A stretch of 64,000 bases of DNA. Origin: an uncultured Candidatus Saccharibacteria bacterium. Lineage in GTDB: Bacteria; Patescibacteriota; Doudnabacteria; UBA920. The translations under genes and the position numbers were made by a program. Location of the stretch: assembly GCA_964631145.1 (NCBI GenBank), contig CAZVXT010000002.1, positions 1,140 through 65,139 on the forward strand. The letters are read 5' to 3'. Shown in pieces: positions 5,060 to 64,000 of this stretch (position 1 is its first letter; every line of letters begins with the position of its first letter). The notes below the pieces were generated by a model that did not search any database, had not been told where the DNA came from, and was given only the letters and a program-made list of their open reading frames with translations.

Positions 5060-5247
5060 AAATTGCCCCAGGGCAACAAATAAACCGAGAAAACCGACAA
5101 ATTCATTCCCCCAAGGAAATCAAAATTTGTTCCCAGGAACAAAAATAAACGGTGAAAACGGACAAAATCACACAAAAGTCACTGGAGTTATGCCAATCCA
5201 CTAGACTTCTATTAAAAATTAAGGCATGTTCGTAATAAGAAAACCCT

Positions 5248-10926: not shown

Positions 10927-10931
10927 AATAT

Positions 10932-11318: not shown

Positions 11319-11358
11319 GTCTACTATAGAAACCATTTTATTAGTCAACTTATAAGTT

Positions 11359-12934: not shown

Positions 12935-12937
12935 TCT

Positions 12938-29353: not shown

Positions 29354-29740
29354 TGGTGGAGATGGCGGGAGTTAAACCCGCGTCCAAAATTTCTTAACCA
29401 ATTTATTGTTCACAAGATTAGTTCGTTATTTTACTGCATGCCATTCAACGAACAACTAAGCATACAGTTTAAAATACTTCTTTTCGATATTGTTACGTAT
29501 TTCAAATAACAATATTATAGCTTCTATTGTCTAGCTAATCTTTACCCAAAGCAGAGGTAAAGGGCTAGTGCACGAACCAATGTTAGGCAAGTGCAGGTTG
29601 TAGGGTTGCATTAGAAAATGCAGCTACAACTTTGTTCCATGCGTTAGCACGTAAGATTGCTTGTAAGATTAATGAGCTTGCAAGCTGGCTCATCTTGCAT
29701 ATAAAGAGATTGTAAAATTCTGTCAAAATCCAACATCCCC
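29354..29740 (-). ncRNA. ssrA: tmRNA (SsrA).
   Basis: The 5' end GGGGAUGUUGGAUUUUGACAG matches the consensus GGGGcuGAUUcUGGAUUCGAC. The 3' tRNA-like end GGACGCGGGUUUAACUCCCGCCAUCUCCACCA contains the T-arm and ACCA. A candidate tag ORF ...ANAWNKVVAAFSNATLQPALA-UAA is present in the middle. Confidence 0.8.
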
Positions 29741-49558: not shown

Positions 49559-50383
49559 ATGAATATAGAAACCTTAAAACAAAAACTTGCAGATTTTGGA
49601 CTTAGCCCAAATAAAACATATGGGCAGAATTTTTTAATGGATGAAATTGTCTTACAGGATATGGTTGATGAAGCTGAAGTTAATAAGGATGATATAGTTA
49701 TTGAAGTTGGTCCTGGTATTGGCAACTTAACTTCATTTTTAATTGCTAAGGCAAAGCAAGTTATTGCTATAGAAAAAGACGATCAATTTGTATCTGTTTT
49801 AAATCATTTAAAAAATAAAAATAAAAATTTCAATTATCAGTTATCCGATATCTTGCATACAGATATTGCAAATTTAGTAGGGGAGTCAAAATATAAAGTT
49901 GTAGCAAATATTCCATACTATATTACAGGTAAGATAATTCAAAAATTTTTATCTTTAAACAATAAACCTCAAAGTCTAACTTTGTTAGTTCAAAAAGAAG
50001 TGGCACAAAATTTAAGTGCTCCAGTAGGCAAATTAAACTTGTTAGCTATATCGGTTCAATTATACGCTGATGTAAAAATGTTAACGGTTGTTCCTGCTAT
50101 GAAATTTTACCCAGCACCGAAAGTTGATAGTGCTGTTGTGCAAATTATTTTGCATGATCACTCTAAGTATGTAAATTATGATGAAAAGAAGTTGTTCAAG
50201 ATTTTGAAAGCTTGCTTCTTAGGAAAGCGAAAACAACTTCATAACACTTTAGTTAATAATTTAAAATTAGAAAAGACTGTGGTAGAGACTGTATTAGATG
50301 AATGCAATATATCAGCCAACTCTCGTCCTCAGCAATTATCGATTGATCAATGGATAAATTTATCAAACAAAATTAATTTATAA
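49559..50383 (+). CDS. rsmA: 16S rRNA (adenine1518/1519-N6)-dimethyltransferase.
   Basis: 'YGQNFLMDEIVLQDMV' and 'VIEVGPGIGNLT' are KsgA/RsmA hallmarks. The start is 2 nt after the pcrA stop. Confidence 0.9.
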   Translation: MNIETLKQKLADFGLSPNKTYGQNFLMDEIVLQDMVDEAEVNKDDIVIEVGPGIGNLTSFLIAKAKQVIAIEKDDQFVSVLNHLKNKNKNFNYQLSDILHTDIANLVGESKYKVVANIPYYITGKIIQKFLSLNNKPQSLTLLVQKEVAQNLSAPVGKLNLLAISVQLYADVKMLTVVPAMKFYPAPKVDSAVVQIILHDHSKYVNYDEKKLFKILKACFLGKRKQLHNTLVNNLKLEKTVVETVLDECNISANSRPQQLSIDQWINLSNKINL

Positions 50384-51206: not shown

Positions 51207-51575
51207 ATGTACAGTAAGTTTGAAAAAAATAAACTTATTAAAATAGCTACTTTTGTAGTGCTTTTTTTGTTGTCAATACAAATAATATCTTTTCCAAAAT
51301 ATACATTGGCTGCTGTTTTGAGCAAGCCATTTGGGGGAGTAATTATATCGTATGTTCCTTCAACACCGCTATGTCCAGTTCCTCATACTTTGATCTATGA
51401 TTTTAAAACAAGGTTGTCATTTGGGATTGCTGTTTTGCCATCGTCTGTAGTTTATGCGTATGCAAATTTATTTAAGCCTGGTACATTTGTTTTGGGTAAA
51501 GCTGGTACAGTAAGCATTACATGCGCATTGCCATATTTAATTTATCCAATTATACAAGTAGGTACTTCTAAATAA
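51207..51575 (+). CDS. Small membrane/secreted protein, the first gene of the T4SS-like operon.
   Basis: 122 aa with an N-terminal TM 'IATFVVLFLLSIQIISF' and a second hydrophobic stretch 'FGIAVLPSSVVYAYA'. Confidence 0.4.
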   Translation: MYSKFEKNKLIKIATFVVLFLLSIQIISFPKYTLAAVLSKPFGGVIISYVPSTPLCPVPHTLIYDFKTRLSFGIAVLPSSVVYAYANLFKPGTFVLGKAGTVSITCALPYLIYPIIQVGTSK

Positions 51576-51580
51576 AAAAA

Positions 51581-52276
51581 ATGAAATTATTTATTGAAAA
51601 ATTAAATAATGCTGGTTTTAATAAAAACCATTTCCAATTAATTGGATTGGCAATGATTGTTTTTGTCATTCTAATTTTTGCTAAATCAGAAATTAGTTTG
51701 AAGTCTCTAGTTACTCAAGCCGATTCTAAACCGGAGATACTTACTTATGAAGATGCTTTAAAGCAAGTATCATCTAATAATAAAGTTAACTCAGATCAGT
51801 TTAATAAAGATTTGGAAAATCAATTTGCTCTTCTTGATAGAGGGCAAGCAGATGGAAAGGTGTTAGGAGAGGCGATTGGGATTGGTGCAATTCCAGATTC
51901 TTCTGAGTTAGCTGTGCCCGAAGCTTTTAATGAATATCCGGTTGTAACTTCAAATGATAATTCTTCAGTTGCAATTGCTAATTATCAAAATGCCATTACG
52001 AATATCGAAGCAAGATATGGCACAGTAGAGATGTTGGCGGATTTAAATTCGGATGATAAGCAAATGATAAATTCTAGTTTGGCAAAGTGGAAAAATTTAT
52101 TATTAGAAATTTCAAAAATAAATGTTCCATCTAGTTTGGCAGAAAGCCATAAAAATAAAATCGTATACTACTATGCAATTATGAAAACCGGAGAAGTGTA
52201 TGCAGGGCAACTAGATGAATCTAAATTATCGTATTACTTAAAAATAATGTTAAGCTACGCAAATAAGGTGCAGTAA
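51581..52276 (+). CDS. Bitopic membrane protein: a short cytoplasmic N-terminus, one TM, and a ~190-aa extracytoplasmic domain. Possibly a VirB8-like scaffold.
   Basis: The TM is 'LIGLAMIVFVILIFA'. The topology and size match VirB8/TcpC-like components, but the assignment rests on architecture only. Confidence 0.35.
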   Translation: MKLFIEKLNNAGFNKNHFQLIGLAMIVFVILIFAKSEISLKSLVTQADSKPEILTYEDALKQVSSNNKVNSDQFNKDLENQFALLDRGQADGKVLGEAIGIGAIPDSSELAVPEAFNEYPVVTSNDNSSVAIANYQNAITNIEARYGTVEMLADLNSDDKQMINSSLAKWKNLLLEISKINVPSSLAESHKNKIVYYYAIMKTGEVYAGQLDESKLSYYLKIMLSYANKVQ

Positions 52277-52277
52277 A

Positions 52278-54269
52278 ATGAAAAACAAAAATAAAAAAAT
52301 TCAAAAAATAATTGCTAGCTCATTATTATTACTTGTAATGTTGCCAACTTTTGTATCTGCTCAAAGTTTGCTTGGAGGATTGGATACTGTACCTGTTAAT
52401 GATGGGAGTCTTAATTCTAAGTTTGGATTTGACCAAGGGGCTTTGGGAGGGACAGTTGGCACTATCGTTAAAATAGCAGACCAGATCAACAAGATTAAGG
52501 CAGGGCTATCTTCAGTGTGTGCTAAAACAATTGAAGCCTTGGGTACTGCTACAGATGTGAGTGATTATATTTCTAAAGCACAAAATAATCCAGCTTTCTG
52601 GCAACAGATTTTAGGTGGCAGTGCGGTAGAGGCTACAACTATTACAGTTCAAATCCAATTTTTGAATGCAACTTTTGCGTGTGTTAAAAATTTTAATGAA
52701 AGCTTAAAGGATGTAAAGCCTGGAACTTTTGAAGAGTCTCAAAACTTGCAAAAACTTATTACTCACTACGGAGATATACAAACTCAATTGAGTGGGAAGA
52801 TTGAAAGCTTAAATGCGAGAGCGAGTGCAAGCTGGAAAGATGTGTTAAAAGCTGTGATGGTTAAAATGATTTTAACCTTGAACAAAAATTTAACTACAGA
52901 ACTAGTGAATGGTTTAGTTCAGAAATACAGAATAGAGGACTACTTGGCATATGGAGATGCGGTAGCTACTCAGTTGTATTCTATGAAATACATTAATGAA
53001 AATTATTCTGGTGATGCGCGTACTCAAATGATGTTGCGTTCTTTAGTACAAAGCCAGAAGTTTCCAGAAAAAGCAGCGACTGCGATGACCTTTGCAAATC
53101 AAATGGCACAAGAGCAGTTAAATAAATCTTGCGATGGTGTAAAGGATATAGAATCATCAGATACAGAAAGTTATCTAAGATGTATATCAGCATATGGACA
53201 AGCAGAAACTAGCCCCGCTTATCAATACATGCAAGCTTTAGATAAAACTTCTGTGGTATTAGCAGCTGCAAAAAATAGTACTGCGCAAGAAATTGCAACT
53301 AGTAATGGTTTTGCACCGCCTCGCGATTGTAGTGGGTCTGTTGCAGCGCAGCAACAAATTGATAGTAGTTATGATCAGGCAGTAAGTGATTTGGAAACTG
53401 CAAAAAGAACTACAGAGCTATTGTTAGATGCTTATACCAAAAACCCAACTCCTGCTCAAGAGGCAGAGTACAATAAAGCTTTTGCCGCAGAGCAAATTGC
53501 AGAAGACAAATTAAACAATTTAAGCAAAAACACTAAAACCCCTGTCATAGATATTTGTAAAGCAATTACCGCACCAAGCAATTTTGTTTCTGATCAGATT
53601 AATAATTTCTTAAAACAACATTTGGATCAAGCTTCCCAATTAAAGAGTGATAACTTGCCATTTTATGCAAACTTCTTAAGCGACGTTGCAAGTAACTTTT
53701 TAACCAACTTAATTGTGGGTGGAAAAAGCACTGGTCAAGTATTTAAGGAAGCTGGTTATCAGGCATTAGGCGGCACAATTGTGGCATTGTCTGACGCTCA
53801 AAAGCAAGCTGCTAAAAATACAACTGGTCCAATTACTCCAGGTAAAATAACCGAAGGGTATGTAAAGATTTATGCTAGAGAAGTGGTTAATAGTGATTTG
53901 ACCGGTGATAATACCACTACTTTAAGTGCTGGCAAGAACTATGCGATCGTCGTAGACTTTAAAGACTTGGTTAGTACTGGTGACGCTAACTATACACCAG
54001 TAAGAATGGTTGTTAGCGGAGTAGCGGGCGGTCCGTTAAACTTTGATATTAGCTCTGCAGAATTGAATAGCGGTACTGTCACTTTTGATGTGAGTAACGC
54101 TACAAAATCCTTTACAGTTAAAGTTTTGTTATATTCTAAGTTGGCTGGTACACCAGAAAACTTAATTAGAGCTGAAGGTTGGAGTCAAAACTTTGGAGTT
54201 GGGGTTGTACAAGGCGTAAGTACTGTAAGTTTTTATCCACGCGGTACTTTTGCCCCTAGAGGGAATTAA
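52278..54269 (+). CDS. Large secreted protein of 663 aa in the T4SS-like operon.
   Basis: The signal peptide is 'IIASSLLLLVMLPTFVSAQS'. It starts 1 nt after the previous stop. A terminator hairpin lies at 54301-54332. Confidence 0.5.
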   Translation: MKNKNKKIQKIIASSLLLLVMLPTFVSAQSLLGGLDTVPVNDGSLNSKFGFDQGALGGTVGTIVKIADQINKIKAGLSSVCAKTIEALGTATDVSDYISKAQNNPAFWQQILGGSAVEATTITVQIQFLNATFACVKNFNESLKDVKPGTFEESQNLQKLITHYGDIQTQLSGKIESLNARASASWKDVLKAVMVKMILTLNKNLTTELVNGLVQKYRIEDYLAYGDAVATQLYSMKYINENYSGDARTQMMLRSLVQSQKFPEKAATAMTFANQMAQEQLNKSCDGVKDIESSDTESYLRCISAYGQAETSPAYQYMQALDKTSVVLAAAKNSTAQEIATSNGFAPPRDCSGSVAAQQQIDSSYDQAVSDLETAKRTTELLLDAYTKNPTPAQEAEYNKAFAAEQIAEDKLNNLSKNTKTPVIDICKAITAPSNFVSDQINNFLKQHLDQASQLKSDNLPFYANFLSDVASNFLTNLIVGGKSTGQVFKEAGYQALGGTIVALSDAQKQAAKNTTGPITPGKITEGYVKIYAREVVNSDLTGDNTTTLSAGKNYAIVVDFKDLVSTGDANYTPVRMVVSGVAGGPLNFDISSAELNSGTVTFDVSNATKSFTVKVLLYSKLAGTPENLIRAEGWSQNFGVGVVQGVSTVSFYPRGTFAPRGN

Positions 54270-54478
54270 GAACTTTAAAAACATAACAATAAAAACCGCT
54301 GATCATATAATCAGCGGTTTTTCTTATAAAAGATTTTTTAGATTGAAGAGTATATTTTTTGAATTTTCAATCCTTAAAATTGATTTTAAATTATATAAAA
54401 TTTAATTTGGGTTTTACACATCTAATATGGTATAATTATTTTAAGTTTTGAGATAAATTTTACCAAAATTTTAAGACC

Positions 54479-57400
54479 GTGAATCAGAAACAAACATCAA
54501 AATTACACAATAAATTTAGAAACAAATTTTTGATTTTTAAGAAGCCTTTACTCCTATTTTTGGCTTTTGTTTTGTTAATGCCGATTGTTATAACATTGAC
54601 AAACACTGCAAAAGCCGGGGCTTCTTTTAATTTTTCAGAAAGCGGAACTTTATCTGACGAATCAAAGACAGGAAATTGCCCTGTTAACAAAATGCCTTTT
54701 AAATCTGTGATTGAAGTGAATAAGCCTCAAAATGCAGGTGGACTGCTTTCTAATAGCACTTTTACTACAGGTATCAATCAGGATTTGAAGTTTTATGTTA
54801 GCATGGAGGTGACAAATAATACTGGAATAAGAGGTGCGGTAGATAGTGTATCTGGTGGTGCGGCAAACTTTCAAACGATAGTTGATAACTGTAAGGCTCA
54901 GGCAGAAGCTGGCAAGATTAACCTAAGGGCAGTTATAGATTATAAAAGATTTACAGTAGCTGGTAATAACCCTTATATTGCTGCTGGTCAATTGCGTACC
55001 CCAGCAGTAACAATGACTTTTGGGAATGGTAAATTAGAAGCCAATTTAACAACTAAAATCCCAACTTCAAGTTTGGGTGGAGCTATTGTTGGTGACAATA
55101 GTCCTAGTTCGACAGGTGATAGAATAATTGTTTCATTTGAGGTCACTGCAAATGTAGGGACTACTTGGAATCGAAATATTAGTGGAACTGGAATAACTGG
55201 ACTACTTCAAAAGGCTAATGTAAATGATGAATCTGTAACTCAGGCTGTAAATCAATCTAAAGAAGTTGGAACTAGTACAACTGTGGATTTGCAAGACGTT
55301 GCAAAATCTTTAACTTTGGATAGTACAAAAGATAAAAAAGGATTTGAAACAGTTTATAGATACGCTGAAGATCAAAAGGATACAGATTCTGCAAGGCAAG
55401 GTAAAATTCAAATTCCGTTTTATTTAAGCTGGAAAGGTACTGGATCACCTCCGTTGTTAAATTCTCCTTTGATTAGGCAACAAGACGCTCTTTTTAAAGG
55501 GGCTTTAGATGGCTTCTACTTGGGTATCTCTAAAGAGTATAAAAATGACAAATCAACTCCGCAATGTGGTAGTACTATCACGGATTTTTGGTGTACTTCA
55601 TTAATTTTAGATCAGGCTCCAAAACAAGCTAGAGAATTAGATGTTCAAGACACTTTGAATTTATCTTATGCAAATATATCTGCTTTAGACACAGATACCG
55701 CAGCTGCTTCTACTGCAACCACCAAACCAAAGTTGGTCAAAAAAGCCGTTGCTTTGCCTATGGTATCAGTTAAGGCAAGCAATGATAATGCAGTAATGAC
55801 TAATAATTCATCTGCTATTACTATCGAAGTTTATGCAACCTTTGAAGATTTGAAAAAAGCTTGCCAAGAAGCAGATGCAAATGCTGATTGTTCTAAACCA
55901 GAAAATTTATATTACGGACATAAATATACAGAAGTAACAACTACAGGAGCCCAAGATTCTAAAGATACAACCGCTAAAACTTTAATTGATTTTCTTCGTC
56001 GCGTTGTTGTTGATATTACATTGCTGCTTACAGGATTAATTTATAAGATTTTTTCATTCATTTTAGTCCCAGTATTAAAAGCACTCTTAAGTATTCATCC
56101 ATATGAAGATAAATTTGTAGATTTTATCTACCCTGGTTGGGTTATTATTAGAAACCTGACTAACATTGCATTTATCATTGCCCTTCTTGTTATGGGGTTA
56201 AAAGTTATGTTTAGACAAGAAGGGGTAGGTAATAGCCAAGGGTTTTTAGTTCGCCTAATTTTAATGGCATTGTTAGTTAATTTTAGCTTAGTTATAGGTC
56301 AAAGCGTGGTAGCCATAGCAGACACGGTACAGTCTCAATTTTTACCAGAAAATAATAAGGTACTCGAAGTTCTGGGTCAGAAATTAATGGTAGACCCTGT
56401 AATTATATTTAGAGATAGCTTAAATGACCCTAATAATAATTTTTCTGAAACCCCTGCTGCAAGTGATATTTTTAAACCAATAGTTTTGTTGGTGTTATCT
56501 ATAGCTTCATTTTTTGCTTTTGTTGCATTAGCTGGTCTTATCTTTGTACGTATTATTATGCTTTGGGTTTTGTATATGGTTTCGCCATTTGCATATTTTG
56601 GTAGACTCCTTAAAGAAACGCAAAAGTATGCTGATCAATGGTGGAGTGAATTTATAAAGCAGACCATGACAGTACCAATACTCGCTTTCTTCTTAAATAT
56701 CACAGCTTTAATGGCAACTACATTTGCTGTTCGCACAGGAAGCTCTGTAACTGTTTCTCCGGCAAACGAATATCTGCTTGGCGGTATTACTGGAGATTTG
56801 GCAACTTTTACCATCACAGTTATTTCTCATTTTGTTGTTTTGATATTTTTGGGCGCAGGAATGGTCTATGCAACATCTGCTGGAGGTATTGGCTCTAAAG
56901 CGGTTGTTAAATATGCTAAGAAAGGGTTTGATAACTTTACTACCAGACCTGCTAAATGGGCATATAATCAAGCTAAAGATTTGGGTAAGTATGGAGTTAA
57001 ACAAGGCAAACTATTTGGAAAAGACGCTGCAAATACTTTTTACGAACGCAATATCGCTGGTGGTATGCTTGACCTTAAAAAATGGAAAGATAATTGGAAG
57101 TCTTCTGTTGCAGAAACTACTAAAAGACGAAAAGCAGAGAGATTGGCACGTAATGCTCAAAAGCTTGGACCTGGAAACTTATTGCCTAAAGATGCGACAA
57201 GTTGGGCTGAGTTAGGTAAAAATTGGAAACAAGCTGGCAAGTATTTAGCAGCAAAAATTAAAGGACGTGGACCTGATGGCTTATTAAATAATGCTAATAA
57301 ATTCCAAGAAGCATCTCAGATATTAACAGATAATGATCGTGCTGCGTTAATGAGCAGATATGCAAATCATGTAAGTGACAAAGCAGATATTGATCATGAA

Positions 57401-58597
57401 AAGTATTTATTAGAAGATCACGGTGCTATTACTATTGAAAGAGCAACAAAATATAAAGATAATCTCCAAAAAATGGCAGATTCTGCAGACAAGCAGGCTA
57501 AAGATTTAGAAAAAGGTATGCAGAAAAAAATTAATAATGGCACTATTGATGCTAATGGAGAAGAAGCGACTAAGACTAAAAAGAAAATAGCTGATTTAAG
57601 ACAAGATGCACAGCAGTACCAAGATGGGGCTAAGAATCTTGACGCTGCTATTGGTAGAAGTCAGGCTGCAGGCAGCAATGAAGTATCATTAGAAAATAAA
57701 AATGTAGATTTAAATTTGGTCAGCCCGGTATTAAAAGTTGATCAATTATCTATAGACTTAGAGGATGATAGTAAAAAAGCAGCTAAAGTTATCAAAGCAG
57801 ATAAAGAATCTATAGATCTGGATGATAAACGTCGAGAGCAATATGGTATTCAACATATTACTGAAGATCAACAGAAAGATTTTAGGAGGCAAAGTGATTC
57901 TTATCGAGATGAAGCTAAGAGTGTAAATATGGTCACTTCAAAAGAAGGTCAAGCTGCACTTAATATACTTAAGAAAGATGCAGCAGAAAAAATTGAAAAA
58001 ATTGATGATGTGGATGGATTAAAAGAAATTTATAAAGAAGCATTGGCTAAAAATAACTCCGCGTTGGCAGCTGCCATAGCAGAAAAAATGGCTAAAATAG
58101 GTGGATTGGATGACTTGCTTAAGATGAGGGGATTTGATAATAACCTTAAAGATTTTCAAAGATTTATTGATCAAGAGTTTAAAAACTTGGCACCTCAGTT
58201 AAGGTTGCAATTAGGATCGCAAATTTCTTATATTGCTAAAGGTAATGGAAATGCTGTGTTAGGAAATGCAACAACATACGAATATAATAAAGGCACAGGA
58301 GAGGTTGTTGTTAATTGGTCTCAAGAAGGATTGGCTAGTAAAAAGTTGGATGCTAAGCAAAAAAGCGATCGTCCAGATGTTGCTTCTAAGTATAAAAAGA
58401 CAGATATTTCTAAAGAAGCTGGGGGACTATGGTATTTGAACCAAGGTTTTGTGGATGCTATGAATAACTGGAATCCTGCTGCAGTAGACAACTTTGTTAA
58501 GGATGCACCAACTTCATTAGTGAAACATATATTGGACTCGAAAGGTAGCGAGCAAATCAAAACTAGTGTGAAAAATATTTTAAGCAGCGTAGTATAA
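54479..58597 (+). CDS. Giant VirB6/TrbL-like polytopic membrane protein of 1372 aa. It has an N-terminal ~480-aa exported domain, a central multi-TM channel-like region, and a ~570-aa charged coiled-coil C-terminal domain.
   Basis: It has a GTG start and a signal/TM 'LLLFLAFVLLMPIVITLTNTAKA'. At least 7 hydrophobic helices span residues ~500-800 (e.g. 'VVDITLLLTGLIYKIFSFILVPVL' and 'PIVLLVLSIASFFAFVALAGLIFVRIIMLWVLYMVSPFAYF'). The C-terminus is Lys/Glu/Asp-rich. Confidence 0.5.
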   Translation: MNQKQTSKLHNKFRNKFLIFKKPLLLFLAFVLLMPIVITLTNTAKAGASFNFSESGTLSDESKTGNCPVNKMPFKSVIEVNKPQNAGGLLSNSTFTTGINQDLKFYVSMEVTNNTGIRGAVDSVSGGAANFQTIVDNCKAQAEAGKINLRAVIDYKRFTVAGNNPYIAAGQLRTPAVTMTFGNGKLEANLTTKIPTSSLGGAIVGDNSPSSTGDRIIVSFEVTANVGTTWNRNISGTGITGLLQKANVNDESVTQAVNQSKEVGTSTTVDLQDVAKSLTLDSTKDKKGFETVYRYAEDQKDTDSARQGKIQIPFYLSWKGTGSPPLLNSPLIRQQDALFKGALDGFYLGISKEYKNDKSTPQCGSTITDFWCTSLILDQAPKQARELDVQDTLNLSYANISALDTDTAAASTATTKPKLVKKAVALPMVSVKASNDNAVMTNNSSAITIEVYATFEDLKKACQEADANADCSKPENLYYGHKYTEVTTTGAQDSKDTTAKTLIDFLRRVVVDITLLLTGLIYKIFSFILVPVLKALLSIHPYEDKFVDFIYPGWVIIRNLTNIAFIIALLVMGLKVMFRQEGVGNSQGFLVRLILMALLVNFSLVIGQSVVAIADTVQSQFLPENNKVLEVLGQKLMVDPVIIFRDSLNDPNNNFSETPAASDIFKPIVLLVLSIASFFAFVALAGLIFVRIIMLWVLYMVSPFAYFGRLLKETQKYADQWWSEFIKQTMTVPILAFFLNITALMATTFAVRTGSSVTVSPANEYLLGGITGDLATFTITVISHFVVLIFLGAGMVYATSAGGIGSKAVVKYAKKGFDNFTTRPAKWAYNQAKDLGKYGVKQGKLFGKDAANTFYERNIAGGMLDLKKWKDNWKSSVAETTKRRKAERLARNAQKLGPGNLLPKDATSWAELGKNWKQAGKYLAAKIKGRGPDGLLNNANKFQEASQILTDNDRAALMSRYANHVSDKADIDHEKYLLEDHGAITIERATKYKDNLQKMADSADKQAKDLEKGMQKKINNGTIDANGEEATKTKKKIADLRQDAQQYQDGAKNLDAAIGRSQAAGSNEVSLENKNVDLNLVSPVLKVDQLSIDLEDDSKKAAKVIKADKESIDLDDKRREQYGIQHITEDQQKDFRRQSDSYRDEAKSVNMVTSKEGQAALNILKKDAAEKIEKIDDVDGLKEIYKEALAKNNSALAAAIAEKMAKIGGLDDLLKMRGFDNNLKDFQRFIDQEFKNLAPQLRLQLGSQISYIAKGNGNAVLGNATTYEYNKGTGEVVVNWSQEGLASKKLDAKQKSDRPDVASKYKKTDISKEAGGLWYLNQGFVDAMNNWNPAAVDNFVKDAPTSLVKHILDSKGSEQIKTSVKNILSSVV

Positions 58598-58600
58598 ATT

Positions 58601-59605
58601 ATGAACAATGAAGAACTATTAAAAGATGCTTTACAAAGATTGAATGCCAAAAGTGCAGTCGAGCTTTTAAATATGTCTGAAAAAAATCCAAGCATGAACC
58701 TGGATAATATTACTAAGATAAGATTATCTTATGTAAGGATGAATAGTCTTTCGTTGAACAGGCTTACAGATTTGATGCAGCAATCCATTTTGCAAAGCTA
58801 TACTCTGCCAGATTTTCTATTATCAGAAAAAATAGAAACATTTGCAGAGCTGTTATTTGATCCAGAGCAAGAAATTGAGCTTTACGATCGTATAGGATTT
58901 ATTTTGAGCGGCAGCACTGAACGCGTGGTAACGCAAAGTATTACTATTAATGGTAAGGCGGAAGTTGCTACAATTAGCAATTTTATTGCTGACTATATTA
59001 ATACCTTTAATGAAGTTGACCGAGATGCTTTAACTCAACTTAAATATATTAACAATTCTCCTAATGTTAAAGATTTATTAGAAGTTCAGAGAGCTGTAAT
59101 CAAAGATTTGCTTAAGCTATATGATAAAGCTGAAGATATGGTAGTAATGTGGCAAACTCTTCCTACTGTAGAAAATCCAAAACAAATTGAAGAGTTGTTT
59201 GATATACAAGATTATTACCCAGGAATAGAAAAAGCAGAAGAATCAACTGGTTCTAAGGATGCATTTAATGATCAGAGTCAAAATCAAAATGTAATAAAAG
59301 AAGAGCCGGCTAAGGCTGTTGTGCATCAACGCTCAGAACAGCCTGTACTTCCAAAACGTGTTGTCCAACCTATCCCAACAAGGGTAAATGAGCCTCGTGT
59401 TATAGAGGCTTTGACTCCTCAAAATAAAACAAGTACCCCAGCCATGGATGTCTTACGAGCAAATTATTCTCCAAAAGGAATTATGCAGAGCAATGGTACT
59501 AATATAAAAATTAAAGATGAAGTAGACAGATTACAGGAAGATCAAAAAAAATTTGCTGATATTCAAAAAAAGTTAGATGAATTAAAGACTAGAAAGTCTA
59601 AATAA
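58601..59605 (+). CDS. Hypothetical T4SS-operon protein.
   Basis: 334-aa ORF located 4 nt after the previous gene, with a charged C-terminal coiled coil. Confidence 0.45.
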   Translation: MNNEELLKDALQRLNAKSAVELLNMSEKNPSMNLDNITKIRLSYVRMNSLSLNRLTDLMQQSILQSYTLPDFLLSEKIETFAELLFDPEQEIELYDRIGFILSGSTERVVTQSITINGKAEVATISNFIADYINTFNEVDRDALTQLKYINNSPNVKDLLEVQRAVIKDLLKLYDKAEDMVVMWQTLPTVENPKQIEELFDIQDYYPGIEKAEESTGSKDAFNDQSQNQNVIKEEPAKAVVHQRSEQPVLPKRVVQPIPTRVNEPRVIEALTPQNKTSTPAMDVLRANYSPKGIMQSNGTNIKIKDEVDRLQEDQKKFADIQKKLDELKTRKSK

Positions 59606-59613
59606 ATTTTGTT

Positions 59614-60408
59614 ATGAACGAATTAAAAGTTCGACAATTAAAACAGCTGATAAATATTAGTACCGTGTTAAGCCCTCAAGAAAAACAAGAATGGCTTGGT
59701 CTTTTAGAATTGATGAATGATAAACAACTTACTGAATTAGAGCATATATTGGTGCCTAAACCTGCTGTAGAGCCTAAAGTAGAAACAGGTGAAGTAAAGA
59801 CACCGTCTTTAAGCCATATTTCTAGTTTGCCAAATAAAGTGACTATTCCTCAAAACTTTATTAAGTCCACAATTCCTATTAAAGAATCTACTACAGAACC
59901 GATAAAAGTTGCTGTAAATCCTTTAGAAGAAAAACAAAAACAAGCTATCATTAGCAATGAGTCAAATATGGCAGTTGCAGATGGGAAAAATATTGAAGTT
60001 TCTGCTGGGGTGCAACCAAAAAAACAAATTTCAATAATTAGAACTCCTCCTAAAACACCTGATATTAAAGCTGATTTAAATAATATCGAAAGAAATAATA
60101 CAGATATCCCTGAGGTTATACCACCTCCTGCAGAGTTATCAATCGAAGAATTAGAAAATTTATCAGTATCAAATCTAAGAAATTGGGGAGCAAAAGCATT
60201 TATAAAAGTCTTAAGTAAAACAGCATCTGTATATGGTTATTTTGTAACATTGCAAGAATTTGAAAAGAGCCAGTTATATAAAGATTATTTAGAGTATGGT
60301 AGAACCGGCTTGATGATGAATGGTGATTCTAATAAATTAAAGTTAACTCATTCGGAATTTGAGACAATCATAGATTCTATTGCTGCGATGCAGGTTAATA
60401 AGACTTAA
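59614..60408 (+). CDS. Hypothetical T4SS-operon protein.
   Basis: 264-aa ORF. Confidence 0.45.
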   Translation: MNELKVRQLKQLINISTVLSPQEKQEWLGLLELMNDKQLTELEHILVPKPAVEPKVETGEVKTPSLSHISSLPNKVTIPQNFIKSTIPIKESTTEPIKVAVNPLEEKQKQAIISNESNMAVADGKNIEVSAGVQPKKQISIIRTPPKTPDIKADLNNIERNNTDIPEVIPPPAELSIEELENLSVSNLRNWGAKAFIKVLSKTASVYGYFVTLQEFEKSQLYKDYLEYGRTGLMMNGDSNKLKLTHSEFETIIDSIAAMQVNKT

Positions 60409-60454
60409 AATGGTATAATTATTAAGGAGATGTTTATTTAAATTATAAGTAATT

Positions 60455-60901
60455 ATGCAGTTTCCTGTACCACAATTTACAGATGTAGAGGATAAAATTA
60501 TTGCCGGACTTACATTTAAGCAGTTTGGTATTATTTTTGGTGCCGCAGTATTTACATTTGTTATTTATGTTATAACTAAGAACATTCCTATTACCATAGG
60601 CTTTGGAGTATTAACTGGACTTCCTTCATTGGCATTAGTATTTGGTAAGCTCAATGGTAGACCTTTGTATGCTAGCGCCGGAGCATTTATTCAATATTTA
60701 TTTGGCGCAAAAGTGTATACATATCATAAAGCTGGATACAAAGAAGTAGAAATAAATACAGAGATACCTAAAGCAAAACCGGAAGTAGAGAAGATAGATC
60801 GATCTCCTTTAAAGTTGAAAGAACTAACTTATGCATTAGAACAAGGCAGAGAAGAAGAAAATAAAATTTTAGATATTATTAATAAAGATAAGCAAAAATA
60901 G
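60455..60901 (+). CDS. PrgI-family / VirB3-like small membrane protein.
   Basis: 'DVEDKIIAGLTFKQFGIIFGAAVFTFVIYVI' matches the PrgI-family N-terminal motif (..EDKIIgGLTlRQ..). It has two TMs and sits immediately upstream of the VirB4 module, as in Gram-positive T4SSs. Confidence 0.55.
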   Translation: MQFPVPQFTDVEDKIIAGLTFKQFGIIFGAAVFTFVIYVITKNIPITIGFGVLTGLPSLALVFGKLNGRPLYASAGAFIQYLFGAKVYTYHKAGYKEVEINTEIPKAKPEVEKIDRSPLKLKELTYALEQGREEENKILDIINKDKQK

Positions 60902-60906
60902 CTTAC

Positions 60907-61587
60907 ATGGCAGAAAAGAAAAACCAAAACCAAGGACAATCTTCAACTCAAGAATTTTTACAAGTTTCGGAAATTAGAGATAATATTATTATCTTAAAAG
61001 ATGGAACTCTGCGTGCTGTATTAGCTGTTTCTAGCACTAATTTTGATTTAAAGAGCGAAGAAGAACAAAATGCTTTGATTTATTCATATCAGAGATTTTT
61101 AAATTCGCTTGAGTTTAGTATTCAGATTTTGATGCAGAGTCGAAAAATGGAAATTGCTGACTACACAGAAAAGCTTAGGCAGATTATGGATAAGCAGACA
61201 ACCGAGCTTATGAGAATGCAAACCGCAGAATATATAGATTTTATAGATAGGCTCGTAGAATCTGCAAATGTCATGAATAAAAGTTTTTATGTAGTCGTTC
61301 CTTATGATATGAGCGTAAATCCAGGAACAACAAGCTTTTTTAGTAAATTATTTGGAAGCGGTAAAACAAAAGAAATCGAAGATAAAAGAGTAAATCTAGA
61401 AACGTATGGCAAGCAGTTAGACGAACGCGTTACGACAATCGAAAATAATTTAGCAGGCTGTGGTTTAAAAGTTATGAGACTTCAAACAGGGCAATTGATA
61501 GAGTTAATTTATAATTCTTACAATTTTAGTGCAGGTCCTTCTATAGATGCTAGCCAGCTTTCGCAAATCAATATTAAAGCACAGTAA
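60907..61587 (+). CDS. Protein resembling the N-terminal domain of Gram-positive VirB4 (PrgJ/ConE/TraE). It is encoded separately from the ATPase.
   Basis: 'VSEIRDNIIILKDGTLRAVLAVSSTNFDLKSEEEQNALIYSYQRFLNSLEFSIQIL' resembles the N-terminal segment of VirB4-family ATPases. Its stop lies 2 nt before the ATPase ATG. The combined length (226+614 aa) matches a full VirB4, with the Walker A at a position equivalent to residue ~490. Confidence 0.45.
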   Translation: MAEKKNQNQGQSSTQEFLQVSEIRDNIIILKDGTLRAVLAVSSTNFDLKSEEEQNALIYSYQRFLNSLEFSIQILMQSRKMEIADYTEKLRQIMDKQTTELMRMQTAEYIDFIDRLVESANVMNKSFYVVVPYDMSVNPGTTSFFSKLFGSGKTKEIEDKRVNLETYGKQLDERVTTIENNLAGCGLKVMRLQTGQLIELIYNSYNFSAGPSIDASQLSQINIKAQ

Positions 61588-61589
61588 TT

Positions 61590-63434
61590 ATGGGACTATT
61601 TTCATTAAATCAAACTGATTTAGATAAAAAAAAGGCGGAGTTAGCCAATTTAAAAGGGCAAATTTCTGCTGATCAAAAATTATCTGAAGTTGAAAAAGAA
61701 TATCAGGAAGGTATTACACAGCTTCAAGATTTGTTAGCCCCAGCTTCTTTAAAGTTTACTGGTTCTTCTTTCGAATTAAACGGTAAGTTTGGACGCAGCT
61801 TTTTTACTTTGGCTTATCCTAGATTTTTATCTTCCAATTGGCTTTCATTTATTATAAATTCTGAAAGTGCTTTAGATGTATCTATGTTTATCTACCCAAT
61901 AGATTCTGAGATTGTTTTAAAAAAGCTAAAGTCAAAAGTTGGAGAGATTGGCTCGCAGATCATGATTGAGCAAGAAAAAGGGTTGGCTCGCAACCCGATG
62001 TTGGAAACTGCTTATCATGATGTTGAGGATTTACGTGACCAATTACAGCAAGGTACCGAGCATTTCTTTAGATTTGGATTGTATTTTACTTTGTATTCCG
62101 ATAGTTTGGAAGAATTAGATAAGAACTCAAAAATATTAGAAAGCGCCCTTGGGGCTAAGTTAGTTGTAACTAAGAGAGCAATGCTTGCAATTGAACCAGG
62201 CTTTAATTCAACATTGCCTTTAGGACTTGATCAGCTAAATGTTGCAAACAACCTCAATACAAGTCCTTTATCAACGACATTTCCTTTTGTATCTTCTGAT
62301 TTAACTGGTAATGATGGTATTTTGTATGGAGTTAACAGGCATAATAATAGTTTAATTTTGTTTGATCGTTTTCAGATGGAAAATGCTAATTTTGTGGTTT
62401 TTGCTAAGTCCGGTGCAGGAAAAAGTTATGCTGTAAAACTAGAAATTTTGCGATCTTTAATGTTAGGTATAGAAATTATTGTCATAGATCCAGAAAATGA
62501 ATATCAGCATTTAGCCGAAGCTGTAGGTGGTACTTATATAAATATATCTTTAAATTCTGATTTTCGTGTTAATCCATTTGATTTGCCAATCGGTATTGCG
62601 GATGAAGACCCTGCAGATACTTTACGAAGTTCTGTAATTAACTTGATGGGCTTGATGGGGCTTGTATTGGGTAAGCTTGATCCTTCAGAGGAAGCAATTT
62701 TAGATAAAGCTATTTGGCAAACTTATGCTAAAAAAGATATTACCGAAAATACTGATTTTAGAAGTGCAGAAATGCCAATTATGAGCGATTTAATTGAAGT
62801 GCTTTCAGGTATGGTAGGTGGAGAAAGTTTGGCTCTTAGATTAGGTAAATTTACTGAAGGGACTTTTTCTGGATTGCTAAATCAACAAACCAACGTGGTT
62901 TTGCAAAATCAACTTTTGGTCTTTTCTATTAGAGATCTTGAAGATCAACTTCGTCCAATAGCTATGTATATTATTTTAGGACATATTTGGAATGTTGTTA
63001 GAAGTGAGCTTAAAAAGCGTATTTTGGTTTTGGATGAAGCCTGGTTGATGATGCAGCATGAAGATAGCGCTCGTTTTGTTTTTGGTATCGCCAAGCGTGC
63101 ACGTAAATACTACCTAGGTTTAACAACTATTACTCAGGATGTGGCGGATTTTATGGCTAGTCCATATGGAAAACCTATTGTTACCAACTCATCCATACAG
63201 CTATTATTGAAGCAAAGCCCTGCGGCAATTGATGTTGTTGCAGAAACCTTCTTTTTGACTGAAGGTGAAAAATATTTATTACTCGAGAGTGATGTTGGTG
63301 AAGGGATATTTTTTGCTGGATTAAAGCACGCAGCAATAAAAATTTATGCTTCTTATGTCGAAGATCAAATTATTACTACTGATCCAAAACAATTATTAGA
63401 AATAGAAGCCAGTAAAGAAGACTTTAATAATTAG
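61590..63434 (+). CDS. VirB4/TrbE/CagE-family type IV secretion ATPase (C-terminal 614 aa).
   Basis: The Walker A is 'FVVFAKSGAGKSYAV' and the Walker B is 'RILVLDEAWLMM'. 'TITQDVADF' and a CagE_TrbE_VirB-like region lie upstream. Confidence 0.85.
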   Translation: MGLFSLNQTDLDKKKAELANLKGQISADQKLSEVEKEYQEGITQLQDLLAPASLKFTGSSFELNGKFGRSFFTLAYPRFLSSNWLSFIINSESALDVSMFIYPIDSEIVLKKLKSKVGEIGSQIMIEQEKGLARNPMLETAYHDVEDLRDQLQQGTEHFFRFGLYFTLYSDSLEELDKNSKILESALGAKLVVTKRAMLAIEPGFNSTLPLGLDQLNVANNLNTSPLSTTFPFVSSDLTGNDGILYGVNRHNNSLILFDRFQMENANFVVFAKSGAGKSYAVKLEILRSLMLGIEIIVIDPENEYQHLAEAVGGTYINISLNSDFRVNPFDLPIGIADEDPADTLRSSVINLMGLMGLVLGKLDPSEEAILDKAIWQTYAKKDITENTDFRSAEMPIMSDLIEVLSGMVGGESLALRLGKFTEGTFSGLLNQQTNVVLQNQLLVFSIRDLEDQLRPIAMYIILGHIWNVVRSELKKRILVLDEAWLMMQHEDSARFVFGIAKRARKYYLGLTTITQDVADFMASPYGKPIVTNSSIQLLLKQSPAAIDVVAETFFLTEGEKYLLLESDVGEGIFFAGLKHAAIKIYASYVEDQIITTDPKQLLEIEASKEDFNN

Positions 63435-63442
63435 TTATCAAA

Positions 63443-64000
63443 ATGTCAATTGAGGATAATAATGCAATAACTGATAATTCTGTGGTAGAATCTCCAAATA
63501 ATTCTGGAGATTCTTTTGTAGACGACTCTGTAGATTTAATAGATAATCAACCTTCTGGACAGAAGGGGTTTTATGATATTGATACACAAAATCCAAGTAA
63601 GTGGGATATGGCTAAAGCTGCCGCATTTAGAAAGACTAGGCAAAAGTTGATGCGTGCTCCTATGGAGAAATTAGGAGAACAAGTGTTGGGTGATAAGTCA
63701 GGATTTTTGGATGGGCGCGAAACCCCCAGAGAAAAAGCTAAGGAGATTGCTCGTCAAAAAGCCCGTGATTTTGCTAAAAATAAACTAGCAAACAAAATTG
63801 GTAATGAGGGGATTAAAAAAGGTTTAGAAAAAGGATTATCTAAAGGAGCAAGTAAGTTAGCTAAAGATGGGGCAAAAAAACTTGGGAAGGAAGCTGGTAA
63901 AAAAGTTGCAGAAGAAGGCGTAAAGATGGCTGCTAAAGGTACTGCTCAGGCAGCTACCAAAGGGCTTCAAAGCATTATTTCTGGAGCAGCGGTTGCTTCT
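63443..64000 (+). CDS. Hypothetical protein, 5' part only. It has an acidic N-terminus and a Lys/Ala/Gly-rich repeat region, and runs off the window.
   Basis: It is open from ATG 63443 to the window end. The product begins MSIEDNNAITDNSVVESP... and continues ...KGLEKGLSKGASKLAKDGAKKLGKEAGKK... Confidence 0.4.
   Translation, partial: MSIEDNNAITDNSVVESPNNSGDSFVDDSVDLIDNQPSGQKGFYDIDTQNPSKWDMAKAAAFRKTRQKLMRAPMEKLGEQVLGDKSGFLDGRETPREKAKEIARQKARDFAKNKLANKIGNEGIKKGLEKGLSKGASKLAKDGAKKLGKEAGKKVAEEGVKMAAKGTAQAATKGLQSIISGAAVAS

Follow-up and report, generated by a model that had tools for sequence, protein, structure and literature searches.

Gene content of the locus

The stretch of DNA analysed here (64,000 nucleotides, hereafter the window) comes from a Doudnabacteria-like ultra-small (CPR/Patescibacteria) bacterium. 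ORF calling revealed ten co-directional ORFs, A to J, on the plus strand at 51207-64000. They encode a translocon set, comprising an extended VirB6 (D), a PrgI/VirB3 protein (G) and a two-piece VirB4 motor (TrsD-like H and ATPase I), together with clade-specific partners: exported B and C, cytoplasmic E and F, and polytopic J. Translation showed that the ORFs of the cluster are all intact and that the VirB4 ATPase motifs are preserved. The features are as follows.

49559-50383, rsmA (RrnaAD, 184 bits)
50615 to about 51100, minus strand, DUF192 lipoprotein gene between rsmA and the cluster
51207..51575, plus strand, A, small exported protein of 122 aa with a signal-like N-terminal segment and two Cys
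51581..52276, plus strand, B, bitopic membrane protein of 231 aa with one N-terminal TM and a predicted extracytoplasmic all-alpha helical bundle
52278..54269, plus strand, C, secreted protein of 663 aa with a signal peptide
54291..54322, GC-rich palindrome forming a hairpin between an A-run and a T-run, in the 209-nt C-D gap
54423..54440, plus strand, extended -10 promoter-like motif TAATATGGTATAATTATT upstream of virB6
54479..58597, plus strand, D, extended VirB6/TrbL-like channel protein of 1372 aa
58601..59605, plus strand, E, predicted cytoplasmic protein of 334 aa
59614..60408, plus strand, F, predicted cytoplasmic protein of 264 aa
60406..60423, plus strand, second copy of the extended -10-like motif, TAAAATGGTATAATTATT, at the 46-nt gap before prgI
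60455..60901, plus strand, G, PrgI/VirB3-family protein of 148 aa (PF12666)
60907..61587, plus strand, H, TrsD/TraD-like protein of 226 aa, the VirB4 N-terminal domain as a separate ORF
61590..63434, plus strand, I, VirB4 ATPase of 614 aa, CD1110/MPF_FATA-like
63443..64000, plus strand, J, membrane protein of 361 aa, with its first 186 residues in the window and its end at window-equivalent 64528

A preliminary description of this DNA had named rsmA as the upstream neighbour; the gene is present, but the minus-strand DUF192 gene intervenes. It had also put all gaps at ≤50 nt, which is not so for the 209 nt between the 663-aa gene C and virB6. The hairpin in this gap is strong (fold energy -17.4 kcal/mol) and is followed by a T-run, and most related loci carry an equivalent hairpin and T-run, differing in sequence, in the same gap. 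We predict that it is an intrinsic-terminator-like element. Its positional conservation suggests two transcription units, B-C and D onward, the first of which would probably be transcribed separately and end at the hairpin. Another near-identical copy of the extended -10-like motif lies beyond the window, directly before a PD40 gene; the motif is a consensus match only and is statistically unsecured.

Translocon proteins and their clade-specific partners

ATPase I scored 350 bits against the VirB4-like CD1110 family (cut-off 325 bits) and matched P-loop_TraG at 8e-25, and its translation holds intact Walker A (GAGKS) and Walker B (LDEAW) motifs. It is 60-90% identical in the 80 loci retrieved and has 281 relatives in GTDB species genomes; the best plasmid-borne relatives, from Firmicutes and Actinobacteria, are ≤36% identical. 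The VirB4 is split into this 614-aa protein and the TrsD-like H, which was absent from the preliminary description. H matched NF041427 TrsD (E=7e-10) and VirB4_plasma residues 93-233 (E=4e-10), and carries a precomputed PF26593 TraC-like assignment. Since 77 of the 80 loci encode H as an ORF of its own, about 227 aa long, the split is not a frameshift. Protein G, present in 72/80 loci, has two TM (21-42 and 46-64) and scored 32.6 bits against PrgI PF12666, above the 27-bit gathering cut-off.

Protein D starts with an anchor/signal, followed by a hypervariable ectodomain (about 47-500); a polytopic core (about 501-810) and a C-terminal domain (811-1372) come next. Hydropathy gives the core 6-7 TM and places the large C-terminal domain in the cytoplasm. 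Alone, D fell below the TrbL threshold (E=0.0017, 18.6 vs 25.9 bits). TrbL was matched by 33 of 44 orthologous D membrane cores (best 1e-9), and the only match of the D family profile among PDB sequences was TrwI/VirB6 of R388 (E=1.4e-4). The initial reading of an operon with PrgI/VirB3, VirB4 and a giant VirB6 is thus borne out by the PF12666, CD1110-family and TrbL/TrwI matches; the HMM check of PrgI and VirB6, named beforehand as a point on which this reading could fail, supported both assignments, VirB6 via the orthologue set. Where VirB4 is 86-90% identical, the D core is 50-59% identical and the ectodomain has no detectable relative, and a phmmer search against 1.84 billion representatives returned four matches, itself and three partial ones. 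This hypervariable N-terminal domain is an orphan that is predicted to lie outside the cytoplasm.

The 122-, 231-, 663-, 334- and 264-aa products had all been described as exported. Localisation prediction by hydropathy agreed for A, B and C, which have signal or TM segments, but found no hydrophobic segment anywhere in E and F, which are therefore not Sec-exported. The sole hydrophobic segment of A spans residues 8-32, and A had no match in Pfam or NCBIfam. Its homologues among related loci are confined to L071 and L007, apart from a degraded copy in L005; gene B of the other relatives directly follows rsmA, without gene A. Being present in only two or three related loci, gene A is an accessory gene restricted to few lineages and not a conserved part of the cluster.

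Protein B, with orthologues in 22 loci, has one TM at residues 15-45. The AF2 model of residues 105-231 is wholly helical with a pLDDT around 90; a Foldseek search of the PDB gave nothing at E≤0.001, and the family profile had no match among PDB sequences. B is not VirB8-like. Protein C forms an elongated, helical molecule that ends in an Ig-like fold: residues 63-452 make up a long helical domain, 457-480 a hydrophobic helix that is conserved, and 530-642 a beta-sandwich of the Ig-like type at the C terminus. Both proteins are fast-evolving; a search for structural relatives of either revealed none known, and neither resembles a known pilin or adhesin fold.

Neither E nor F had a family or PDB match. 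An iterative HMM search recovered E in 61/80 loci; its N-terminal domain is conserved and is joined through a Pro-rich linker to a C-terminal helix. F, found in 65/80 loci, contains fourteen invariant residues. An invariant motif at its N terminus (…EK.EWL.LL.LMNDKQL.ELE.IL) and a conserved domain at its C terminus flank a Pro-rich linker, and the F profile matched only 15 unnamed proteins among 5.8 billion. In one genome, L077, E is fused to F. The full sequence of J was taken from L081 (12537-13622), which is identical to the window over 13,094 nt and also supplied the 7.6 kb of true downstream sequence. By hydropathy, the N-terminal half of J is acidic, Lys-rich and cytoplasmic, and about 4-5 TM are grouped towards its C-terminal end; J had no family match. 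The protein at this position in sister clades carries a C-terminal SLT lytic-transglycosylase domain, which is absent from J here.

Chromosomal position and inheritance

Downstream of VirB4 lie the 361-aa membrane protein J, a PD40 beta-propeller, RadA and, in convergent orientation, RecG. Gene calls across the 7.6 kb downstream contain no relaxase, coupling protein or integrase, and none of the large window ORFs, including those in the 51 kb upstream, has a T4CP or relaxase domain (71.6 kb in total). The loci of relatives likewise lack relaxase, T4CP and integrase, and we found no att-like flanks and no flanking direct repeats longer than chance. The absence of VirD4 and relaxase reported from the sequence first in view thus extends to all large window ORFs and 7.6 kb beyond, and the true downstream sequence has no relaxase, T4CP, oriT or integrase/att site directly after the cluster, the presence of which would have spoken for an ICE. 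A survey places VirD4-like genes far from virB4 in most Patescibacteria (PMC12102498), and a T4CP or relaxase may lie in this genome beyond the 71.6 kb covered.

About 60 species-level genomes across the class share the arrangement rsmA–cluster–PD40–radA–recG; the order of genes B to I is kept in dozens of species, and rsmA lies upstream of the cluster in several relatives. Among genomes with ≥5 kb downstream (n=61), 60 carry PD40, 56 RadA and 54 RecG. Median identity in the same genomes is 77% for VirB4, compared to 54% for RadA and 43% for RecG, and VirB4 identity co-varies with that of RadA and RecG (rho 0.66 and 0.53), which points to a strongly constrained VirB4. GC and composition of the locus are like those of its flanks, with no anomaly. 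The shared position in these genomes, the flank-like composition and a VirB4 that tracks housekeeping divergence, together with the downstream sequence, support the proposal made at the outset that the system is chromosomal and non-conjugative rather than an ICE, and indicate vertical inheritance. We conclude that the cluster is a real, relaxase-less, Gram-positive-type T4SS locus that is fixed in the chromosome.

Known systems and possible function

Two systems served as close comparators: SEML1_0006-0019 of Candidatus Southlakia epibionticum ML1 (PMC10633639) and the 'Patescibacteria clade' T4SS (PMC12102498). The homologous Southlakia cluster, which has no relaxase or coupling protein, is essential for epibiotic growth (PMC10633639, supplement), an essentiality established in one Saccharibacteria species only (PMC10633639). 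The phylum-wide survey described TrsD, PrgI, VirB6 and VirB4 without relaxase, and listed KsgA/RsmA near virB4 in most classes and radA and recG in class ABY1 (PMC12102498). Our locus shares with them its chromosomal location, the order VirB6-like … PrgI – TrsD-like – VirB4 (about 612-614 aa), the lack of a relaxase or coupling protein in the cluster and similar giant VirB6-like proteins. In contrast, the window has no PF18895/VirB2-like pilin array and instead carries the clade-specific B, C, E, F and J and the PD40 propeller; it also lacks a lysozyme/peptidase downstream of VirB4 and an NTF2-like (VirB8-like) protein. We detected neither a VirB2-like pilin nor a VirB1-like hydrolase or VirB8-like protein in the locus; such components appear as weak matches in sister Doudnabacteria clades and are present in the Saccharimonadia prototype (PMC10633639 supplement). 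The machine here is either reduced or built with unrecognised parts. Patescibacteria T4SSs were already described in 2023-2025 (Wang 2023; Quiñonero-Coronel 2025), and the kind of system is not new; the new details are the orphan hypervariable VirB6 N-terminal ectodomain, the missing VirB2-, VirB1- and VirB8-like genes, and B and C without structural relatives.

The preliminary description suggested a machine of episymbiotic CPR bacteria for effectors, DNA uptake or host attachment, and the literature makes the same proposal for this system (PMC10633639, PMC12102498, PMC12857230). We consider it probable that the locus is a Patescibacteria-type T4SS in a Doudnabacteria-like form, which would serve host-contact translocation or attachment. 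A VirB4 hexamer, docked on VirB6 through PrgI and TrsD, would power assembly of a surface structure and/or non-conjugative substrate movement. The substrate would most likely be a protein or other macromolecule exchanged with the host cell carrying the episymbiont, although no substrate, effector or transport direction can be read from the sequence. Host-specific contact would be made via the hypervariable, surface-exposed VirB6 N-terminal domain and the fast-evolving B and C. E and F may act as a cytoplasmic adaptor pair replacing the missing coupling protein, as their fusion in one genome suggests. These putative roles of B, C, E, F and J draw on topology, conservation and position. The fit with a pilus cluster in the window, raised in the preliminary description, adds little, as that cluster lies ~40 kb away and has a weak type IV (pseudo)pilin signature.

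The MPF_FATA systems (pGO1/pSK41 trs with TrsC, TrsD and TrsE, pIP501 tra, pCF10 prg and the CTn2 CD1110 family) resemble the locus in their CD1110-family VirB4 (350 bits), a TrsD-like ORF separate from VirB4, a PrgI/TrsC-type VirB3 and a monoderm architecture without VirB7, VirB9 and VirB10. However, they reside on mobile elements and have a relaxase, T4CP, VirB1-type hydrolase and VirB8-like proteins, whereas the locus is chromosomal and vertically inherited, with VirB4 identity ≤36%. That the locus is an ICE or its degraded remnant, with relaxase, T4CP and integrase outside the sequence seen, is already largely refuted and highly improbable. Firmicutes and Actinobacteria do carry the closest non-Patescibacteria VirB4s, on conjugative plasmids and ICEs, and a large serine recombinase sits by tRNA-Asn in the same window (5248-6942), but this recombinase is 44 kb off, with the housekeeping genes RNR, ArgRS, IleRS, UvrD and rsmA between. 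The lack of relaxase and T4CP in 71.6 kb, the identical chromosomal position in about 60 species, a VirB4 more conserved than the neighbouring repair genes, and intact ORFs and ATPase motifs without compositional anomaly or direct repeats longer than chance also argue against it.

VirB4, VirB3 and VirB6 without coupling protein or relaxase are likewise found in Helicobacter pylori ComB and archaeal Ced, and the neighbourhood of the locus is rich in recombination genes: radA follows co-directionally in 56/61 related genomes, recG is adjacent in 54/61, UvrD and RecO genes lie upstream, and comF, recG and radA adjoin the T4SS in class ABY1 (PMC12102498). We regard it as unlikely, though conceivable, that the locus is a ComB-like (Helicobacter) or Ced-like (Sulfolobales) importer of host or environmental DNA, which would feed recombination or nucleotide salvage. 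The weak CedB match (E=1.6e-12) scores 46.8 bits against a cut-off of 700 and thus reflects shared VirB4/HerA ancestry only, ComB belongs to the diderm MPF_T systems and includes VirB7-10, recG runs in the other direction, and the radA/recG adjacency may be plain conserved synteny of a small genome. Moreover, competence in Saccharibacteria requires type IV pili and ComEC, and comEC deletion stops transformation while viability is kept, whereas the T4SS is essential (PMC10633639; PMC12857230); the literature holds no experimental link between Patescibacteria T4SS and competence (PMC12857230). Somewhat less likely still, VirB4 and VirB6 would serve only to assemble B, C and the VirB6 ectodomain into an attachment structure, with nothing translocated into the host. 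VirB4 is established to drive pilus biogenesis (also PMC12102498), the coupling protein is absent, C is elongated with an Ig-like end, and exported B and C lie 5' of the positionally conserved predicted terminator, an arrangement typical of highly expressed structural subunits. Yet no VirB2-like pilin is detectable in the locus, B and C are unlike any known pilin or adhesin fold, and the large VirB6 cytoplasmic domain and conserved cytoplasmic E and F suggest substrate handling inside the cell.

Protein D also recalls the extended VirB6 proteins of Rickettsiales, such as the Anaplasma phagocytophilum virB6 paralogues, in which a polytopic core is joined to very large, strain-variable hydrophilic domains, in obligately host-associated bacteria with reduced genomes (PMC3556328, PMC12857230). 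Those belong to diderm MPF_T systems and their extensions are mostly central or C-terminal, whereas the variable domain of D is N-terminal, follows the signal/anchor, and is an orphan predicted to be extracytoplasmic.

Gene content of the T4SS-like cluster

Every long ORF within 51207-64000 of the window lies on the plus strand. These ORFs, labelled A to J, are listed below.

Genes of the T4SS-like cluster, in window coordinates
A, 51207-51575, plus strand: 122 aa, signal-like N-terminus
B, 51581-52276, plus strand: 231 aa, single N-terminal TM segment
C, 52278-54269, plus strand: 663 aa, signal peptide
D, 54479-58597, plus strand: 1372 aa, VirB6-like
E, 58601-59605, plus strand: 334 aa, predicted cytoplasmic
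F, 59614-60408, plus strand: 264 aa, predicted cytoplasmic
G, 60455-60901, plus strand: 148 aa, PrgI/VirB3 family
H, 60907-61587, plus strand: 226 aa, TrsD/TraD-like
I, 61590-63434, plus strand: 614 aa, VirB4 ATPase
J, 63443 to the window end, plus strand: 186 aa within the window, 361 aa in full (on the overlapping contig L081)

The preliminary description of this locus had proposed PrgI, VirB4 and VirB6-like proteins, and HMM searches back all three assignments, that of VirB6 by way of its orthologues. The product of I matches the Gram-positive CD1110 type (conju_CD1110, 350 bits, cut-off 325) as well as P-loop_TraG (8e-25), and its translation carries both Walker A (GAGKS) and Walker B (LDEAW) intact; it is the VirB4-family ATPase with intact nucleotide-binding motifs by which a T4SS is recognized. 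G scores 32.6 bits against PF12666 (cut-off 27) and has two hydrophobic segments, as does a PrgI/VirB3 protein of the MPF_FATA class. D by itself matches TrbL at E=0.0017 (18.6-21 bits), under the Pfam cut-off of 25.9; when the aligned orthologous membrane cores of D were searched individually, 33 of 44 matched TrbL, the best at 1e-9. A profile of the D family, run against all PDB sequences, returned TrwI, the VirB6 of plasmid R388, as its sole match (7o3v_F, E=1.4e-4). Judged by these similarities, D is the polytopic VirB6/TrbL/PrgH-type channel protein expected of an MPF_FATA system.

The product of H is TrsD/TraD-like and corresponds to the N-terminal domain of VirB4 (NF041427, E=7e-10). 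It ends 2 nt upstream of virB4, and a separate TrsD-like ORF in this position is characteristic of the Patescibacteria T4SS clade (PMC12102498). This two-piece VirB4, which the preliminary description did not mention, is kept in 77 of the 80 related loci retrieved by VirB4 likeness; a frameshift or sequencing artefact is therefore ruled out as the origin of the split.

The five proteins of 122, 231, 663, 334 and 264 aa had all been described as exported. This holds for A, B and C, with their signal-like N-terminus, TM segment and signal peptide, respectively; in E and F no hydrophobic stretch is present, and a cytoplasmic location is predicted for both. Homologues of A were found in no more than two or three relatives, and elsewhere rsmA lies directly 5' of B. 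We rejected A as a VirB2-like pilin on this distribution, together with its single hydrophobic segment and the lack of any pilin-family match. In a structure model, B consists of a TM anchor and a confident, all-alpha bundle of four to five helices, and C of a long helical domain followed by a C-terminal Ig-like sandwich; no known structural relatives were found for either. E and F are conserved and contain Pro-rich linkers, while J combines an acidic, Lys-rich N-terminal half with about 4-5 TM segments. None of E, F and J matched anything in Pfam, NCBIfam or PDB sequences, and a profile of F run against 5.8 billion proteins retrieved only 15 unnamed proteins. In one genome, the E and F families form a single 573-aa ORF (locus L077, 5753-7474), a natural fusion that points to a joint role of the two proteins.

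The genes are closely packed, as previously stated, apart from one gap of 209 nt between C and D that exceeds the 50 nt given as a maximum. This gap contains a perfect GC-rich hairpin between an A-run and a T-run (54291-54322), and most relatives have a matching hairpin and T-run of different sequence in the same gap. From this positional conservation, B-C and the genes from D onward are probably separate transcription units. In addition, a near-identical 18-nt extended -10-like motif (TAAWATGGTATAATWATT) occurs in three gaps, just upstream of virB6 (54423-54440), prgI (60406-60423) and the PD40 gene beyond the window end (L081 13620-13637). These copies may represent shared promoters; the pattern was drawn from the copies themselves, and at up to three mismatches it is no commoner than in shuffled sequence.

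Chromosomal setting and inheritance

Downstream DNA was obtained from L081, a 64.7-kb assembled contig that carries the TrsD-like protein, shares 13,094 nt with the window at full identity and runs 7.6 kb past the window end. Following VirB4 on this contig are J, a membrane-anchored PD40/TolB-like beta-propeller and RadA, and then, on the opposite strand, a small ORF, RecG, a DUF5673 protein and TspO. Upstream, the neighbor was said to be rsmA. This gene is indeed present about 0.8 kb away (49559-50383; RrnaAD, 184 bits), with a minus-strand DUF192 lipoprotein gene in between. The 51 kb upstream of the cluster encode ribonucleotide reductase, ArgRS, IleRS, an MFS transporter, UvrD, RecO and similar housekeeping functions.

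The absence of a relaxase and a coupling protein, noted previously for the 13 kb of the cluster, extends to the 71.6 kb now covered. Relaxase (MOB) families were matched by none of the ORFs scanned in the window and the 7.6 kb beyond, and in the same DNA no T4SS-DNA_transf, TraG-D_C or FtsK-like match (VirD4/TcpA) was found other than VirB4 itself. An ordinary ICE, with relaxase and T4CP directly downstream and integrase and att sites at its flanks, was looked for in the 7.6 kb and not found. This stretch contains no integrase, the cluster being flanked by rsmA/DUF192 and PD40/radA/recG, and direct repeats flanking the cluster do not exceed chance. A single recombinase was found, of the large serine type (5248-6909); it abuts tRNA-Asn (6868-6942, minus strand) and lies 44 kb from the cluster. 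The GC content of the cluster (0.30-0.36) is like that of the rest of the window. Rfam gave no match in the cluster, and the window holds only one tRNA and one tmRNA. Reading the locus as an ICE or an ICE remnant is essentially excluded.

Scanning one genome for each GTDB species yielded 281 loci with a relative of this VirB4. In the best 80 of these the VirB4s are 60-90% identical; they come from Ca. Doudnabacteria, 'Patescibacteria group', 'uncultured Ca. Saccharibacteria' and one Ca. Portnoybacteria, with a few labelled only 'bacterium'. Synteny across related genomes, a check that the preliminary description had called for, proved extensive: the order B-C-D-E-F-G-H-I is kept across dozens of species, and the cluster occupies the same position in about 60. 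Where at least 5 kb 3' of virB4 was available, PD40 was present in 60/61 genomes, RadA in 56/61 and RecG in 54/61; rsmA is upstream in every relative whose flank is long enough. The locus thus has the housekeeping context reported in a survey of Patescibacteria, with rsmA upstream and radA and recG downstream: the survey lists KsgA (= RsmA) as one of the frequent gene families around virB4 in most classes and places radA and recG beside the T4SS genes in class ABY1 (PMC12102498).

The identity of VirB4 is correlated with the identities of RadA (rho 0.66) and RecG (rho 0.53). Median identity was 77% for VirB4 versus 54% for RadA and 43% for RecG, which we read as a sign of strong purifying selection on VirB4 and as the one indirect hint that the locus might be needed for growth on a host. 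Collectively, the fixed synteny, the co-variation in identity and the conservation of VirB4 argue for a chromosomal locus that is old, passed on vertically and under strong constraint, rather than for a mobile element. The nearest VirB4s from plasmids or ICEs share at most 36% identity with it and belong to Firmicutes and Actinobacteria, which is consistent with an ancestry in the MPF_FATA conjugation systems of monoderms. Taken with the Patescibacteria origin of the best 80 relatives, this distance would fit a VirB4 of the Patescibacteria clade nested in MPF_FATA.

The PD40/TolB-like propeller (L081 13684-14808), encoded just past the window end, follows the T4SS genes on the same strand in 60 of the 61 related genomes. 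The propeller and VirB4 co-vary in identity (rho 0.81). Possibly the propeller is not just a neighbor but belongs to the system as an additional conserved extracytoplasmic component.

Missing parts, conservation gradient and possible function

For the saccharibacterium Southlakia epibionticum, Wang et al. (PMC10633639) described a T4SS cluster that epibiotic growth requires. This cluster is similar to the conjugative systems of Gram-positive bacteria, has no recognizable coupling or relaxase proteins and carries an essential pilin array; the core order in its supplementary table (VirB6-like, PrgI, TrsD-like, VirB4) is the same as here. In their survey of 3,035 Patescibacteria genomes, Quiñonero-Coronel et al. 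(PMC12102498) found VirB4 in 2,417, mostly as one clade nested in MPF_FATA, with TrsD as the commonest partner and PrgI/VirB3 and VirB6 nearby. Relaxases were almost absent and T4CP homologues lay far from virB4; VirB2-like proteins were near virB4 in 1,135 assemblies, fewer than half of those with VirB4, and are thus frequent but not universal (PMC12102498). A 2025 review lists the Patescibacteria systems as a new superfamily branch and presents theirs as the first T4SS that its bearer was shown to require for growth (PMC12857230).

Several parts were sought here and not found. No VirB2-like pilin (PF18895/PF04956) was matched by the operon proteins or by three further small two-TM ORFs of the window (10932-11318, 11359-11655 and 24925-25233), which as candidate T4SS pilins have no Pfam support; a hydropathy screen of related loci likewise revealed no small two-TM ORFs inside the cluster. 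The VirB8-like (NTF2-fold) bitopic protein of MPF_FATA systems (PrgL/TraM/TcpC) is lacking among the cluster proteins. B, the sole bitopic candidate for this role, was rejected: the confident part of its model is all-alpha, and Foldseek and profile searches returned no VirB8, TraM or TcpC. No operon protein contains a hydrolase domain (VirB1-like, SLT/CHAP). The only hydrolase nearby is a 407-aa LysM+CHAP peptidoglycan hydrolase with a weak PcsB-like match, encoded 4 kb upstream on the opposite strand (45872-47095, minus); it could be the VirB1-type wall opener that the operon lacks, or merely a cell-division hydrolase.

In sister clades, whose VirB4s are 74-83% identical, the protein in the position of J has a J-like layout and ends in an SLT lytic-transglycosylase domain (locus L024, 13459-15270; locus L050, 11917-14898), and is followed by a small bitopic protein (A7 members, e.g. 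L050 14910-15455) with weak VirB8, TcpC and NTF2 matches. Relatives of neither this SLT domain nor this bitopic protein were found in the window or L081. These comparisons show that not every locus of this kind carries the pilin array and VirB8-like parts of the Saccharibacteria prototype, or a recognizable hydrolase inside the cluster, and the minimal conserved set therefore narrows to VirB6, PrgI, TrsD and VirB4. L024 alone also encodes, directly after VirB4, a protein of 394 aa (12031-13215) that includes a PT-TG (pre-toxin) domain. Since PT-TG domains are typical of polymorphic toxins, this protein is a possible T4SS effector candidate.

Conservation is uneven along D. In genomes whose VirB4s are 86-90% identical, identity drops to 50-59% in the VirB6 membrane core, and the N-terminal ectodomain (residues ~47-500) has no BLAST-detectable counterpart. 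Ectodomain similarity was found in only 44 of 144 ortholog pairs with VirB4 at least 85% identical (median 29%). When 1.84 billion cluster representatives were searched in full with HMMER, the only hits besides the protein itself were three partial ones, all to other giant VirB6-like proteins. The C-terminal cytoplasmic domain likewise diverges fast. By these sequence comparisons, the ectodomain is an orphan and hypervariable. The system thus grades from a cytoplasmic motor under extreme constraint, through a moderately conserved membrane core, to orphan and hypervariable surface domains, and this gradient indicates which parts probably touch the host. Extended VirB6 proteins that vary between strains have been reported in Rickettsiales (PMC3556328). 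The Patescibacteria T4SS papers compared here, PMC12102498 among them, do not mention a variable-VirB6 pattern, and the words 'hypervariable' and 'extended' are absent from the text of that survey.

By analogy with known systems, VirB4, anchored by PrgI/VirB3 and completed by TrsD, would sit under the VirB6 channel and power either the assembly of a surface structure or the passage of a substrate. An outer face that meets a changing partner would fit the gradient from motor to membrane core to surface parts, and for episymbiotic Patescibacteria this partner would most plausibly be the host cell surface. Given the missing conjugation parts and the gradient, we favor a host-contact translocation or attachment apparatus. 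The VirB6 ectodomain would be a contact element, with B and C as hypothetical further ones, and E and F might serve as cytoplasmic adaptors. Conjugation is very unlikely, because no relaxase or coupling protein occurs in 71.6 kb and the chromosomal setting is fixed. The main rival is a DNA import machine, for which the ComB-like parts list and the conserved radA/recG neighbors speak; however, Saccharibacteria achieve competence through type IV pili and ComEC, and their T4SS is essential independently of ComEC (PMC12857230). Membership of the CedB/ComB4 family, as in ComB/Ced DNA-import T4SSs, was also not found (CedB, 46.8 bits against a cut-off of 700; CedD, 16 bits against 600). A second rival is a machine that only assembles a structure and moves no substrate.

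The earlier view of a chromosomal, non-conjugative machine of episymbiotic CPR bacteria is correct as far as the sequence goes and agrees with published conclusions. The locus is a real, correctly read feature of a recently described kind of T4SS, and its interpretation is already in the literature; the current picture of Patescibacteria T4SSs is unchanged by it. What it adds is a cleanly bounded Doudnabacteria example, with a full gene list, fixed chromosomal edges and a conservation pattern across parts. We consider it improbable, if worth stating, that Doudnabacteria carry a stripped-down Patescibacteria T4SS (no pilin, VirB1 or VirB8) in which the orphan, hypervariable VirB6 surface domain would determine host specificity, diversified by arms-race selection or cassette replacement, with E and F replacing the coupling protein as substrate receptor. 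If true, episymbiont host range would be set by one exchangeable domain of a secretion channel.

Other features of the window

Near the window start are two adjoining genes for DNA adenine methyltransferases, both on the minus strand (261-1043 and 1046-1876). Together with several unknown ORFs and the serine recombinase at tRNA-Asn, this pair occupies 261-6942, a stretch that may represent a small integrated element and in which neither a relaxase nor any T4SS part was seen. The adjacent 7068-11655 encodes a cluster of exported proteins, including a 602-aa protein with a CarboxypepD_reg domain, two small two-TM ORFs and a 210-aa protein whose match to the type IV pilin N-methylation motif is weak (E=0.0016, below cut-off). 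This is probably the 'pilus cluster' of the preliminary description; no pilus ATPase was found in the window. The tmRNA gene (29354-29740, minus strand; 108.6 bits) encodes the tag peptide AFSNATLQPALA. Between recO and the LysM+CHAP hydrolase, 43216-45024 encodes a 602-aa protein with DUF11 repeats (68 bits), which are typical of surface proteins.
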